A stretch of 51,285 nucleotides of DNA, from the sequence record PZ445413.1. One strand, given 5' to 3'. The translations under genes and the position numbers were made by a program. This DNA comes from a phage. Below the pieces are notes generated by a model, which was not told the DNA's origin, did no database searches, and saw only the letters and a list, made by a program, of their open reading frames with translations. Below are positions 33,429 to 44,100 of this stretch, piece after piece (positions within the stretch are counted from its first letter, which is position 1; every line of letters starts with the position of its first letter).

Positions 33429-34550
33429 ATGGCTGTACGAAAAATCACCGACGAGCAGTTTATTAAAGCACGCAAAGAGGGGAAAACCTACAAGCAGATC
33501 GCAGAGGAGTTCGGCCTTAATGTTCGCAGTGTCGAGCGTCGAGCGTCACGCCTTGCGCGTTCTGGTGAGACTGAAATTAAAGGCGCTCCAGGTTATGCAG
33601 TTGTGCGCGAGTCTGTTTTAACTCGCGCAAATGGTGAGGAAGTCATGAGATGGACTATCACCAATAAAGACAAAGAGCAATTAGAGGCTCTCATGCAAGC
33701 CGCTATGGATGCTTTCGCAGAGGAAGTGCCACGCTTGGAGCCGCAGCCGGAATCACGCGCTGATTATTCTGAAAGCCTGGCTTTATATCCGATCTTTGAT
33801 ATGCACCTGGGGGCAATGGCTCACAAGCATGAGTGCGGCGAGAACTACGACACCGCAACGGCGGAAAGGGTTATGAATAACTTTTTCGATTATGCAGTTA
33901 GTAAAGCGCCAAACAGTGAAAAGGCGGTGCTCCTGATTGGTGGCGATATGCTTCACAGTGACGGCCTGGAGGCTGTAACACCTGCAAGCGGTCACGTTCT
34001 GGATCAAGATAGCCGTTACGCAAAATTAGTTTACGTTGCAATCCGAGCCACGCGCCGCGCAATTAGCCTCATGCTGACAAAGCATAAAGAGGTTGAGGTG
34101 CAAATCATTGAAGGTAATCACGACCAATCAGGAATGATCTGGCTACGTGCTGCAATGGCGGCGGCATACGAAAACGAGCCTCGCGTAAACGTTGATGTGT
34201 CTCCGCGCGTTGTGCATCACACGCAATATGGTAAAACGTTCCTGGCTTACCATCATGGACATACGATCCGCAAGCCTGAAACGCTGTTGATGATGTGCGC
34301 GGCAGATTGGCGGGAGGATTTCGGAAACTCAAAGAGCATGTATGCGCATGTAGGCCATTGGCATCACCAGACCGTAACAGAAACGAGCCTGGGTATTGTG
34401 GAAGTTCATTCCACTATGGCAGCAAAAGACGCTTACGCGGCGCGCGGTGGTTGGCGATCTCGTCGTCGTGCGGCGGTGATTGTTTACGATAAGGAATATG
34501 GCGAGATTGGTCGCTTCATGTTCTACCCTGAAATGATGGAGATCAAATAA
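33429..34550 (+). CDS. HTH domain - calcineurin-like metallophosphoesterase fusion protein
   Basis: 373 aa; N-terminal HTH-like (YKQIAEEFGLNVRSVERRASR); phosphoesterase-like motifs DMHLG, GGDMLHSD, GNHD, HHGH. Confidence 0.5.
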   Translation: MAVRKITDEQFIKARKEGKTYKQIAEEFGLNVRSVERRASRLARSGETEIKGAPGYAVVRESVLTRANGEEVMRWTITNKDKEQLEALMQAAMDAFAEEVPRLEPQPESRADYSESLALYPIFDMHLGAMAHKHECGENYDTATAERVMNNFFDYAVSKAPNSEKAVLLIGGDMLHSDGLEAVTPASGHVLDQDSRYAKLVYVAIRATRRAISLMLTKHKEVEVQIIEGNHDQSGMIWLRAAMAAAYENEPRVNVDVSPRVVHHTQYGKTFLAYHHGHTIRKPETLLMMCAADWREDFGNSKSMYAHVGHWHHQTVTETSLGIVEVHSTMAAKDAYAARGGWRSRRRAAVIVYDKEYGEIGRFMFYPEMMEIK

Positions 34551-34717
34551 TGAAAGTTCGTTGCATCCGTAACACATCAAAATCTTTACCGTTTATCGTT
34601 GGCGCTGTTTATCGTGCCTTGAAACTTTGTGGTGATTTATACGAGATCCGCGACGGTCAAGGAAGCGCAATCCAGGCACCATTAAACGGACATTATCTGA
34701 CTTTTTCGCCACTATAA
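34550..34717 (+). CDS. small protein, member of KxxC...GKxY paralog family
   Basis: 55 aa; taATG overlap with previous gene; MKVRCIRN...VGAVYRAL motif; followed by terminator. Confidence 0.4.
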   Translation: MKVRCIRNTSKSLPFIVGAVYRALKLCGDLYEIRDGQGSAIQAPLNGHYLTFSPL

Positions 34718-34743
34718 AACATAATTAAATCATCAACTTGATA

Positions 34744-34771
34744 GGGGTTGGCATTTGCCAGCCCCTTTTTT
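34744..34771 (+). terminator. rho-independent terminator before lysis cassette
   Basis: ggggttggc attt gccagcccc followed by TTTTTT. Confidence 0.6.
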
Positions 34772-34847
34772 ATTGTTCCGTTTTCGCTCAAGGCTGGTTA
34801 GTATATATTCACATATTTATTGACAATTTAACTTTGAGGATCTAATC

Positions 34848-35063
34848 ATGAAAGAATTTATCAACGCCGCAACAATGGGTACTGGCGGATCATCATTAAC
34901 CAGCGCAGCAACGGGGCAGATCACAATTGCTGTTGCAAGCCTGGTGTTGATGGCGGCTTTTGGTTTATGGGGCGCTTATCTTCGCTGGAAAGATAGCAAG
35001 GCGTTTCAGGAAGCACTAGATCGCGGAGACATTCAAGAGGCAATCAAAATCAGGGGTAAATAA
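34848..35063 (+). CDS. holin (pinholin candidate)
   Basis: 71 aa; single strong TM segment; charged C-terminus; RBS gagga; immediately upstream of SAR endolysin. Confidence 0.55.
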
Positions 35064-35557
35064 TGACGATTAAGACGAGAATCACGGCGGGTGCTTTTGG
35101 CGTGGCGCTCGCCTTAACTTCTCCGCTACTGGAGGAGATAGAGGGAATCAGGTATAAGCCTTACAAGGATATTGCTGGAATCTGGACGGTATGCGCTGGC
35201 ATCACAGGAAAGGATGTGGTTTTAGGCAAGACGTACACGCAGCGCGAATGCGATGCGCTATTAGCAAAGCATATCAAGATCGCAAAGGATGAAGTTGATA
35301 AGCGCGTTAAGGTGGATATTCCAGACACCATGCGAGCGGCTCTATACTCATTCACATACAACGCCGGAATCGGAGCGTTTCGCAAGTCAACCATGCTGAA
35401 ACTGATTAATCAGGGGCGATTGTATGAGGCGTGCGATCAGCTATGGAGTTGGACGTATTACACAAACCCGCGCACCGGAAAAAAAGAGAAGTCGAAAGGC
35501 TTACACAACCGCCGCGCTGTTGAGTTCAAATATTGCGTTAAGGATCTGAAAAAATGA
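35063..35557 (+). CDS. SAR endolysin (GH24 T4-type lysozyme)
   Basis: 164 aa; N-terminal weakly hydrophobic Gly/Ala-rich segment; E-x8-D-x5-T catalytic spacing ([16 protein letters not shown]). Confidence 0.7.
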
Positions 35558-35946
35558 AACGAGTAATCACAGCAATTGCAGTTGCGGTAATGCTTTCCGG
35601 TTGTTCGGCATCAAGCGCGCTGACTGGTTTGATCGGCAGTAAGCCGGAAATCACAGCACAAGCCGGAGCGGAAAACGTAAAACAAACGGTAGGCGTAACG
35701 GCAAAGCAGGACACCAGCAGCAAGCAGGAAAGCACGATTAAGGATTCAGCCGTTGGCAAGGTTGACACCTCAAACAAAAAGAAGGTGAGCGCTTCAAGCA
35801 TTCAGGCTGAAACCATAACGGCGGATAAGATAGAGATCCGTAATTCAGATAGCGGCCTGGATTGGCAAACGAGTGTTTTGTTTTTCGCTGCAATCGCTAT
35901 CATGCTGGTTGCTATCGGTTACGGTAGAAACAAGAAAGGAGCCTAA
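35554..35946 (+). CDS. unimolecular spanin (u-spanin, T1 gp11-like)
   Basis: 130 aa; N-terminal lipoprotein signal with lipobox LSGC plus C-terminal TM helix; overlaps endolysin stop. Confidence 0.7.
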
Positions 35947-35960
35947 CGGCTCCTTTTTTT
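35938..35960. terminator. bidirectional terminator after spanin gene
   Basis: ggagcc taac ggctcc plus T-run; A-rich on the other side. Confidence 0.55.
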
Positions 35961-36186
35961 ATGCGTCTTGCCACTCATGAGATTCATTTGTTGGCTTGTC
36001 GTTTTCGTCGTATGGTTTAATGTAGACTTCGTAAACCTCCCAGCCAAAGCGTTTTGCAATATCGTGCTCAGCTTTCAGCGCGTCGTAATGGCTCCATCCA
36101 TTAGCCTTGTTGTAAACGGTTGGAACCTCGATTGATTGACCGTTTGCAAAGTGGTTTACGCGAACTGCAACAAATTTGGTGCTCAT
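35959..36186 (-). CDS. hypothetical protein
   Basis: 75 aa; preceded on minus strand by box cassette and RBS aaaggaaa; convergent with spanin across shared hairpin. Confidence 0.45.
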   Translation of the reverse strand: MSTKFVAVRVNHFANGQSIEVPTVYNKANGWSHYDALKAEHDIAKRFGWEVYEVYIKPYDENDKPTNESHEWQDA

Positions 36187-43919: not shown

Positions 43920-44100
43920 TGTTGTGTACGAGTCCCGCTATGGGACTCGACAATATAAATGGGATGGCTTGCACGTATGGACGCGCGGTTTTCCTGGTGA
44001 GATCTGGAGGCTGGCGGCTGGGTGGCCTCAACCGCAAATGAGCAAGCGGGATCTTGAATACTACGTCAACAAGGGCGAATTTGTGGAGGCTGAACAATGA
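43903..44100 (+). CDS. hypothetical protein
   Basis: 65 aa; in-frame Met within ORF-track 43879-44100; overlaps previous gene. Confidence 0.35.
   Translation: MSLKRDVVYESRYGTRQYKWDGLHVWTRGFPGEIWRLAAGWPQPQMSKRDLEYYVNKGEFVEAEQ

Follow-up and report, generated by a model that had tools for sequence, protein, structure and literature searches.

A T1-like lysis cassette with genes for a holin, a SAR-type endolysin and a single-chain spanin in a siphophage genome

The window, that is, the whole stretch of 51,285 nucleotides that was analysed (sequence record PZ445413.1), contains three consecutive open reading frames on its plus strand that occupy 1.1 kb (34848-35946) and encode proteins of 71, 164 and 130 residues; the coordinates, lengths and translations are exactly those of the initial annotation. 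The first two genes overlap by a single nucleotide, the last base of the holin stop codon TAA (35061-35063) being the first base of the endolysin ATG (35063-35065), and the last two share the four nucleotides ATGA, in which the spanin start (35554-35556) runs into the endolysin stop TGA (35555-35557). Each of the three starts is preceded by a Shine-Dalgarno-like motif that can be read off the sequence (Table 1). The three genes are translationally coupled and bracketed by two hairpins. They almost certainly constitute the lysis module of a T1-like (Drexlerviridae) siphophage, comprising a holin, a SAR endolysin and a single-chain spanin that would act in three steps. Judged from sequence, the family matches of the three proteins lie far beyond chance level. 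No evidence was found against the cassette assignment itself, and such counter-evidence as there is touches the pinholin sub-claim only.

Table 1. Features of the lysis cassette and its flanks (positions are those of the window)
Feature	Position	Strand	Basis or detail
DUF7244 standalone SH3-like protein, T1 gp14 homologue, 55 aa	34550-34717	+	PF23896
Intrinsic-terminator-like hairpin and U-run	34743-34772	+	10-bp stem, 7 G-C pairs, then TTTTTT
Shine-Dalgarno-like GAGGA, holin	34836-34840	+	7 nt 5' of holin ATG
Holin, T1 gp13 family, 71 aa	34848-35063	+	phrog_2877, T1 gp13 homology
Strong TMD of holin	34920-34982	+	residues 25-45
Shine-Dalgarno-like AGGGG, endolysin	35052-35056	+	read off sequence
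SAR-type GH24 endolysin, T1 gp12 / phage 21 R family, 164 aa	35063-35557	+	PF00959, R21 homology
SAR segment of endolysin	35081-35131	+	I7-L23
Endolysin triad, E27	35141-35143	+	E-x8-D-x5-T
Endolysin triad, D36	35168-35170	+	E-x8-D-x5-T
Endolysin triad, T42	35186-35188	+	E-x8-D-x5-T
Shine-Dalgarno-like AAGGA, spanin	35540-35544	+	read off sequence
Unimolecular spanin, T1 gp11 family, 130 aa	35554-35946	+	phrog_1804, T1 gp11 homology
Lipobox of spanin	35593-35604	+	L14-S15-G16-C17; Cys17 codon 35602-35604
C-terminal TMD of spanin	35869-35925	+	residues 106-124
Bidirectional terminator-like hairpin	35935-35956	both	cassette 3' end

The upstream hairpin is strong (dG -19.8 kcal/mol, z -4.7), none of 200 shuffled sequences folding equally well, and a hairpin followed by a T-run occupies the equivalent place 5' of the holin gene in all nine phages examined. 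It closes the upstream exonuclease/DUF7244 unit and sets the 5' boundary of the cassette. The downstream hairpin is predicted on both strands (dG -17.1 on the plus and -15.3 on the minus strand; z -4.8 and -4.2), holds the spanin stop codon TAA (35944-35946) in its loop, and ends the convergent minus-strand unit as well. A scan for sigma-70 promoters between the upstream hairpin and the holin gene returned nothing convincing. The candidate TTGACA-18-AATCAT at 34820-34849 was rejected because transcription would start inside the holin reading frame; three sites were scored in the scan against a chance expectation of 2.9, and no promoter is claimed.

The product of the second gene matches Pfam PF00959 (E 2e-37) and the PHROG endolysin family (E 1.3e-54) and is 63% identical to T1 gp12. 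Its best relatives in the PDB are R21 (3HDE, 3HDF) and RrrD (4ZPU), with E between 1e-43 and 4e-44, and the match to 3HDE, which is full-length R21, aligns query residues 5-159 with chain residues 11-161 (E 4.1e-44) and includes the N-terminal segment. The triad residues E27, D36 and T42, which fit the GH24 pattern E-x8-D/C-x5-T, are kept in all 11 aligned sequences, RrrD included. Ahead of them lies the putative SAR segment I7-L23, preceded by K4 and R6 as a basic n-region, with a Kyte-Doolittle (KD) mean of 1.72, an insertion-energy sum of +2.6 and a Gly/Ala/Ser/Thr content of 53%; the RrrD segment has values of 2.11 and 63% for hydropathy and composition, respectively. The GH24 lysozyme with a SAR-like N-terminus that had been proposed for this gene is thus borne out. 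The only cysteines of the protein (44, 63, 124 and 158) align with Cys 52, 71, 132 and 160 of RrrD, and none lies in the N-terminal SAR segment. SAR endolysins reportedly fall into two classes in a scheme attributed to Kuty and colleagues (2010), one under steric control like R21 and the other caged by a disulfide like P1 Lyz. Since the SAR segment is devoid of cysteine, the enzyme encoded here would be controlled sterically and by refolding, as in R21, and not by disulfide caging as in P1 Lyz. Its classification as a SAR-type GH24 enzyme is supported, and homology to R21 suggests export, retention at the membrane and release upon depolarisation.

The third protein matches the PHROG Rz-like spanin family 1804 over its full length (E 6e-48), a family represented in 1,175 records of the phage collection. 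Its 44% identity to T1 gp11 over 126 of 130 residues (E 2e-31) places it within the gp11 family, the threshold for which is at least 40% identity over at least 40% of length (PMC6139136). An NCBIfam search returned no useful names. The signal peptide consists of an n-region (residue 2 and R3) and an h-region with a KD of 2.37 leading to the lipobox, and the Pfam model LPAM_1 matches this N-terminus below threshold. Behind the putative periplasmic domain (residues 18-105) follows the C-terminal TMD, with a KD of 2.14 and an insertion-energy sum of -0.3, and a basic tail, RNKKGA. Both the LSGC lipobox and the C-terminal membrane helix that were previously noted are therefore present, and the combination of a lipobox [LV][ST]GC, Ser or Ala at +2, a C-terminal TMD and a basic tail is kept in 11 of the 11 spanin family members examined. 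Under the Lol-avoidance rule an Asp at +2 after the lipid-modified cysteine bars sorting to the outer membrane. Here Cys17 is followed by Ser-Ala with no Asp at +2, and because the +2 residue is Ser the spanin is predicted to be sorted to the outer membrane.

Cys17 is the sole cysteine of the spanin. The other ten family members carry extra cysteines only in the signal peptide or in the C-terminal hydrophobic segment, and thus none of the ten has a periplasmic cysteine, in line with what has been described for the gp11 family and for u-spanins, none of which has one (PMC6139136). A single-sequence AlphaFold model (overall pLDDT 55.6) contains helices at 2-17 and 104-128, the latter with a pLDDT of 73-85, and a short one at 20-27; no structure is seen from 28 to 103, where the pLDDT lies below 50, and the model is too weak to judge the beta-rich periplasmic domain reported for the gp11 family, in which a short helix is followed by beta strands. 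An embedded or overlapped o-spanin was sought and rejected: the sole plus-strand reading frame inside the third gene (35873-35980, 35 aa, starting with GTG) lacks a lipobox and a ribosome-binding site and crosses the terminator. Complementation of the lambda RzRz1 defect by T1 gene 11 is documented, and T1 gp11 carries the lipobox LSGC (PMC6139136). Disruption of the outer membrane would be the function of the spanin encoded here by extension from T1 gp11, the one protein for which complementation is known.

The first protein matches the PHROG holin family 2877 from residue 1 to 71 of 71 in a profile search (E 1.3e-33), and can be aligned without gaps to T1 gp13 at 58% identity. Its sole strongly hydrophobic segment is the TMD at residues 25-45 (KD mean 1.99), and the charged, basic C-terminal tail is cytoplasmic in our reading of the topology. 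Residues 4-23 form a conserved stretch of 20 residues without a single charge, 75% of which are Gly, Ala, Ser or Thr. This segment scores under the usual threshold for transmembrane helices, with a KD of 0.49 and an insertion-energy sum of 8.5, values that resemble those of TMD1 in EssD, an S21-type protein (0.55 and 8.3). The earlier description as a single-TM protein holds in so far as one segment exceeds the hydropathy threshold, but it may understate the membrane association of a protein whose N-terminal segment equals an S21-type TMD1 in hydrophobicity. The two segments are separated by Gly-Gln only and hence lack a loop, where S21-type proteins have one of seven residues. The single-sequence AlphaFold model is a weak one (pLDDT 74.0) and consists of one long helix from 17 to 58 with the hairpin absent. 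None of the Pfam holin families matched at E up to 1, and BLASTP produced no alignment with EssD at E up to 100; for these reasons the protein is not filed under the S21 68 pinholin family, and the claim is limited to a probably similar way of working. A hit to Pfam DUF3262 (E 0.001, 19.7 bits against a cut-off of 27) was discarded as sub-threshold. A dual-start antiholin was likewise discarded, Met10 not being conserved and replaced by Ser, Tyr, Asn or Ala in most relatives. The longer N-termini annotated in Sfin-4, BIFF and OzMSK (extensions of 16 and 18 residues) are excluded here because of an in-frame TGA at 34821-34823.

That the 130-residue protein is an unrelated lipoprotein, for instance a Cor-like or entry-exclusion protein, is extremely improbable: there is a weak match to the PHROG of Cor superinfection exclusion (6e-05, residues 1-53), and several NCBIfam lipoprotein models reach E 0.008-0.09, but these matches cover mainly the signal peptide, whereas the full-length spanin match is stronger by about 43 orders of magnitude. 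The C-terminal TMD, which Cor lacks, the position as last gene of the lysis cassette and the identity to a T1 protein that can replace Rz/Rz1 (PMC6139136) all speak for the spanin. It is very unlikely, too, that the N-terminal segment of the endolysin is a cleavable Sec signal peptide which would yield a soluble periplasmic enzyme instead of a tethered one. The basic n-region and a hydrophobic stretch containing A15-L16-A17 would suit such a signal, but the AxA lies inside the 17-residue stretch with only about eight hydrophobic residues ahead of it, the catalytic Glu27 comes just four residues past the segment, and a Gly/Ala/Ser/Thr content of this order is typical of SAR domains. Moreover, in the alignment with R21 the segment falls on the SAR domain of that enzyme, whose structure is known in membrane-tethered and released form (3HDE, 3HDF), and T1 gp12 and TLS gp68 are predicted SAR endolysins (PMC11447400). 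A larger module is somewhat easier to entertain, though still unlikely. Between the exonuclease and holin genes lies a gene for a clear DUF7244 member (96.1 bits against a cut-off of 27, E 1.2e-27; 61% identity to T1 gp14), and this SH3 gene, which is present in 188 of 522 Drexlerviridae genomes and then always adjoins the lysis module, has been put forward as an auxiliary component of it (PMC13164509). The functional unit would then comprise four genes, with the SH3 protein assisting the endolysin by binding murein, a role suggested for it in phage KanT1. Against this, the DUF7244 protein has neither signal peptide nor TMD and so would presumably fail to get to the murein ahead of lysis with a holin that makes pinholes only; its gene start overlaps the stop of the phosphoesterase gene, to which it is translationally coupled; a strong hairpin with a U-run parts it from the holin gene here as well as in T1 and three further phages that carry an SH3 gene; and most Drexlerviridae do without it (PMC13164509). 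The gene possibly belongs to the upstream exonuclease unit and not to the lysis module, and the terminator in front of the holin gene provides a small but concrete argument on the 2026 proposal of lysis-module membership.

The type of hole made by the holin is less clear-cut. T1-family cassettes are classed as pinholin, SAR endolysin and u-spanin in the literature, which reads the N-terminal segment of the T1-type holin as a second TMD; these papers class the T1-type holin by prediction and report no functional test of it (PMC6139136, PMC4559738, PMC11447400, PMC13164509). Among them is the verdict on T1gp11-family cassettes of the very group that defined these classes (PMC6139136). Operationally, a pinholin is recognised by nanometre-scale holes and by lysis with SAR but not soluble endolysins (PMC9025707, PMC12642591). 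The protein might instead be a canonical large-hole holin with one TMD in an N-out/C-in topology, whose depolarisation of the membrane releases the SAR endolysin. In favour of this reading, only one segment exceeds the usual hydropathy threshold, there is no similarity to S21-type pinholins, the GenBank note on the T1 holin states that it 'contains single transmembrane domain', the AlphaFold model is one long helix, and canonical holins also serve the SAR endolysins Lyz, R21 and N4 gp61 (PMC9025707, PMC12642591). We nevertheless regard it as rather unlikely, given that SAR endolysin genes usually adjoin pinholin genes (PMC9025707), that T1gp11-family cassettes have been classed as just such pairs (PMC6139136), and that the conserved N-terminal segment carries no charge and matches TMD1 of S21 in its weak hydrophobicity. 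The pairing with a SAR endolysin in one cassette recurs in the nine other T1-type cassettes aligned. S21 68 lacking TMD1 is said still to form holes, a result ascribed to Park and colleagues (2006). The holin most probably acts via small, pinholin-type holes; the claim of the initial annotation that the cassette implies pinholin-type lysis agrees with how the literature classes T1-family cassettes, and is kept at this strength for a protein without sequence similarity to the S21 type. One might speculate further, and quite tentatively, that the T1-type holin (PHROG 2877) represents an independently evolved kind of pinholin whose loop-less N-terminal segment either never inserts into the membrane or dynamically exits it. 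If true, the topology of active S21 68 (N-out, one TMD, C-in) would have been attained by another route and without a dual-start antiholin.

From the reading frames, homologies, motifs and conservation in 11 phages, all of which are directly seen, we infer every step of cellular behaviour in the following model. [quoted passage not shown] The endolysin would be exported by Sec and kept inactive by its uncleaved SAR segment, which tethers it to the inner membrane on the periplasmic side, until depolarisation releases the segment, whereupon the enzyme may refold and cleave the peptidoglycan, as suggested by its homology to the experimentally characterised R21. The spanin is predicted to receive its lipid on Cys17 and to be sorted to the outer membrane, and its C-terminal TMD would remain in the inner membrane; with an anchor in each membrane, a single chain would thus cross the periplasm by way of the meshes of the murein. 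Degradation of the murein would free the spanin to disrupt the outer membrane, presumably through fusion of the two membranes, in keeping with its homology to T1 gp11, for which complementation of lambda Rz/Rz1 is on record.

The assignment of the cassette is correct but ordinary, and the same annotation is already known from a near-identical phage. It confirms that the window derives from a T1-like (Drexlerviridae) virulent siphophage with a complete and compact lysis module, and is otherwise mainly of value for annotation. The T1-type holin, a protein unrelated to S21 68 and without an inter-helix loop, is very widespread and occurs in many sequenced Drexlerviridae; its label 'pinholin' is routine but given only by analogy.

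The closest system is that of Escherichia phage vB_EcoS_W011D (MK778457 / NC_054893; Drexlerviridae, Tempevirinae, Changchunvirus), the genes 55, 54 and 53 of which are annotated as holin, lysozyme and unimolecular spanin and whose products are identical to those of the window at 71 of 71, 164 of 164 and 129 of 130 positions; the one difference is a Ser at signal-peptide position 11 of the spanin in place of A11. The DNA is 99.0% identical over 34700-36000 and the flanking genes are shared. Over the structural half of the window, the six matches of best coverage (81-84% identical) do not include W011D. In T1 itself (NC_005833, 42878-43982) the genes for gp13, gp12 and gp11 follow in the same order, overlapping or abutting, and encode proteins of 71, 162 and 133 residues that are 58%, 63% and 44% identical to those of the window. 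Both genomes have the synteny exonuclease, (SH3), holin, endolysin, spanin and convergent helicase block, with gp14 (DUF7244) upstream, a hairpin 5' of the holin gene, the lipobox LSGC and a hairpin enclosing the spanin stop (43970-43991 in T1); this accord in homology and gene order, together with the identical annotation of W011D, upholds the T1-like assignment made at the outset and the identification of the third protein as a T1 gp11-type unimolecular spanin. T1 differs in an HNH endonuclease gene between its exonuclease gene and gp14, in a more hydrophobic N-terminal segment of its holin (KD 0.84 versus 0.49) and in the extra cysteines in the signal peptide and TMD of gp11.

The systems of phage 21 and DLP12 (S21 68 / EssD, R21 / RrrD, Rz/Rz1) resemble this cassette only in part. 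The endolysin is a true homologue of R21 and RrrD, including the SAR region, the E-x8-D-x5-T triad and the four aligned cysteines, although the GPSGND linker that separates the SAR segment from the catalytic Glu is missing from it. The holins are alike in their 71 residues, in the place of their gene directly 5' of and overlapping the endolysin gene, and in their layout, which runs from an uncharged N-terminal segment of weak hydrophobicity through a strong TMD to a basic C-tail, but they share no sequence similarity, and the holin of the window has neither the inter-segment loop nor a conserved dual-start motif. Phage 21 possesses an embedded two-component spanin (rzpD/rzoD) where the window encodes a single chain. 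Lambda Rz/Rz1 has the same role, linking inner and outer membrane and disrupting the latter, and T1 gp11 can make good the Rz/Rz1 defect (PMC6139136). The spanin gene of the window holds no lipobox-bearing reading frame in another frame and its product neither periplasmic cysteines nor predicted coiled coils; unlike the two proteins of lambda, it is one polypeptide that carries both anchors.

The lysis cassette is of a well-known kind, and a near-identical public genome, that of Escherichia phage vB_EcoS_W011D (Drexlerviridae, Tempevirinae, Changchunvirus), already carries its annotation: the record names the three genes holin, lysozyme and unimolecular spanin. DNA identity to window positions 34700-36000 is 99.0%, and the W011D proteins agree with those of the window at 71/71 holin, 164/164 lysozyme and 129/130 spanin residues. 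Profile searches assign all three window proteins unambiguously. The holin matches PHROG 2877 'holin' over its full length (E 1.3e-33); the endolysin matches a PHROG endolysin family (E 1.3e-54) and, at E 2e-37, Pfam PF00959 phage lysozyme (GH24); and the spanin matches PHROG 1804 ('Rz-like spanin') at E 6e-48. The initial annotation had described three consecutive and overlapping genes, and the ORF calls and the sequence itself place them exactly where it did; its finding is correct and its interpretation is supported. Read directly, the final base of the holin stop codon TAA is the first base of the endolysin start codon ATG, the stop of the endolysin gene and the spanin start overlap by 4 nt in ATGA, and a Shine-Dalgarno-like motif precedes each of the three starts.

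Features of the lysis cassette and its upstream neighbours in PZ445413.1
Feature	Position	Strand	Length	Remarks
'DNA repair exonuclease/phosphoesterase' ORF	33429-34550	+	373 aa	phrog_704, E 5e-149
DUF7244 'standalone SH3' ORF	34550-34717	+	55 aa	E 1.2e-27; 61% identical to T1 gp14
Upstream hairpin with U-run	34743-34772			strong; dG -19.8, z -4.7 (34743-34766); between DUF7244 gene and holin
Holin ORF	34848-35063	+	71 aa	
Endolysin ORF	35063-35557	+	164 aa	
Spanin ORF	35554-35946	+	130 aa	
Downstream hairpin	35935-35956			closes the cassette; spanin stop codon in loop

The assignment of the second gene as a GH24 lysozyme with an N-terminal signal-anchor-release (SAR)-like segment is borne out by the Pfam match, the catalytic residues, hydropathy and homology to R21. 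The nearest solved structures are those of R21 of phage 21 (3HDE, the full-length form, E 4e-44; 3HDF, E 1e-42) together with DLP12 RrrD (4ZPU), and the alignment begins at residue 5, within the N-terminal hydrophobic segment. The triad E27-x8-D36-x5-T42 is conserved in all 11 aligned sequences, RrrD included. The segment I7-L23 is preceded by K4 and R6, has a mean Kyte-Doolittle value (KD) of 1.72 and a Gly/Ala/Ser/Thr content of 53%, and is directly followed by two Glu residues, with the catalytic Glu four residues past its end. It lacks cysteine, and each of the four cysteines elsewhere in the protein has an aligned counterpart in RrrD, so the enzyme is predicted to be a SAR endolysin of the R21 type and not of the disulfide-caged P1 Lyz type. 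The distinction between these two types is attributed to Kuty et al. (2010).

The third gene product was expected to combine a lipobox with a C-terminal transmembrane domain (TMD) in the manner of T1 gp11, and motifs, hydropathy and 44% identity all agree with this. Its 17-residue signal peptide bears the lipobox LSGC, identical to that of T1 gp11 (PMC6139136); Cys17 is the sole cysteine, with Ser at +2, and a strong TMD at residues 106-124 (KD 2.14) is followed by RNKKGA. Eleven family members share all of these features, one of them from a Drulisvirus podophage. Where the other ten have extra cysteines, these sit in the signal peptide or in the hydrophobic segment at the C-terminus, and none of the ten has a periplasmic one. 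Precisely this architecture defines the u-spanins of Kongari et al., none of which has a periplasmic cysteine; T1 gene 11 complements the lambda RzRz1 defect, and the gp11 periplasmic domain is predicted to be beta-rich (PMC6139136). In a single-sequence AlphaFold model of the window spanin, the only resolved parts are the signal helix, the C-terminal TMD and a short helix at residues 20-27. The family is widespread, with tblastn hits in 1,175 phage records. A gp11-family u-spanin, ~43% identical, is also found in KP34-like podophages, as in Klebsiella phage Kp_Pokalde_001 (Autographiviridae, Drulisvirus; locus positions 1501-2732), where both the gene order (u-spanin, holin, endolysin) and the annotated lengths of holin (83 aa) and endolysin (191 aa) are different. 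Evidently this spanin gene has passed between phage families that are not related.

The literature examined reports no functional test of the T1-type holin. The window protein had been read as a single-TM holin, and hydropathy (one strong TMD, residues 25-45, KD 1.99, with a net positive C-tail) and the T1 GenBank note agree; by contrast, T1-type holins are read as class II, two-TMD pinholins in the annotations of the Center for Phage Technology and in the TLS paper (PMC4559738, PMC11447400). The holin was compared with EssD, the DLP12 equivalent of S21, to which no sequence similarity was found. Residues 4-23 form an uncharged stretch of 20 residues, 75% Gly/Ala/Ser/Thr, whose KD of 0.49 and insertion-energy sum of 8.5 nearly equal those of the releasable TMD1 of EssD (0.55 and 8.3), and the alignment shows this segment conserved across the T1-type family. 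Unlike EssD, the window holin lacks a loop ahead of its TMD as well as a conserved second start codon, and a moderate-confidence single-sequence model gives one long helix and no hairpin. The cassette had further been taken to imply pinholin-type lysis, and gp11-family cassettes are described as encoding a pinholin and a SAR endolysin (PMC6139136). Canonical holins also serve SAR endolysins, however (PMC9025707, PMC12642591), so a SAR endolysin makes a pinholin its likely, though not its necessary, partner. The window holin is probably a pinholin, though we do not place it in the S21 family.

A longer holin is excluded in the window by an in-frame TGA at 34821-34823. In several public records (L009 and L010, 744-1007; L008, 770-1039) the annotated T1-type holin begins at a TTG or ATG further upstream, which lengthens its N-terminus by 16 or 18 residues to a total of 87-89 aa; the T1 and W011D holins start at a conserved MKEF/MREF (71 aa), and the non-conserved extensions are probably start-site miscalls.

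Upstream lies a gene for a 'standalone SH3' protein (DUF7244), proposed in 2026 as an auxiliary lysis component and found mainly in Tunavirinae, Braunvirinae and Rogunavirinae (PMC13164509); the window phage carries it although its closest relative, W011D, is a member of the Tempevirinae. Its ATG shares 1 nt with the phosphoesterase stop, and its product has no signal peptide, TMD or export signal. Between this gene and the holin stands a strong terminator-like hairpin, an argument for counting the gene with the upstream unit instead of the lysis unit; a hairpin with T-run lies 60-90 nt upstream of the holin in 9/9 phages examined, with or without the SH3 gene. The phosphoesterase gene persistently adjoins the cassette in Drexlerviridae, and residues 17-41 of its product resemble the helix-turn-helix of sigma-70 region 4 (PF08281, E 1.3e-5, just under cut-off). 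No convincing promoter turned up in a scan of the stretch from the upstream hairpin to the holin. In the window (region 34796-34825), aaroes, YSP2, CS01 and OzMSK (same positions in loci L004, L005, L006 and L008), the holin ATG is preceded at a distance of 26-30 nt by TTGAC(A/T), which is absent in T1 and cmc356; the window, aaroes and CS01 also have GGTTAG(T/G)AT another 23-24 nt upstream. As a -35 box, TTGACA would set the start of transcription within the holin ORF, and a search for a consistent -10 box found none; the two motifs could be a regulatory site or merely reflect shared ancestry. The terminator-like hairpin that closes the cassette is probably bidirectional, and the 5' arm of its stem encodes the last spanin residues. 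In T1 (43970-43991) the spanin stop codon likewise lies in a hairpin loop, with different stem sequences.

The standard three-step pathway is the best-supported account of lysis, and all its sequence-level prerequisites are present in the window. By homology to T1 gp11 and R21, the holin would trigger and depolarise the inner membrane; the SAR endolysin would then leave the membrane, refold and degrade the murein. The u-spanin, anchored by lipid in the outer and by its TMD in the inner membrane, would be freed once the murein mesh is gone and disrupt the outer membrane, presumably via membrane fusion (model in PMC6139136).

Overall the window is a T1-like siphophage genome of mosaic appearance. 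W011D is 97.9% identical over 89% of the right, replication/lysis half (26286-51285); the best-covering matches to the left, structural half (1-25000) reach only 81-84% identity, with 75-84% given for the six that cover it best, among them BananaBelafonte, KLB26, PHB17, PMBT35 and slyngel, and two records reach 95-99% at lower coverage. The phage probably represents a species of its own whose structural module has been exchanged. The searches also returned 15 to 21 records named 'Campylobacter phage' (e.g. MG065638 A15a, host Campylobacter jejuni) that match the window at ~75% identity; these look like T1-like contaminants or mislabelled public entries. The T1-like assignment of the cassette itself is supported by protein identity to T1 (NC_005833) gp13 (58%), gp12 (63%) and gp11 (44%) and by a matching gene order in the two phages: phosphoesterase/'DNA repair exonuclease', small ORF, holin, endolysin and spanin, followed by a convergent block that ends in a helicase.
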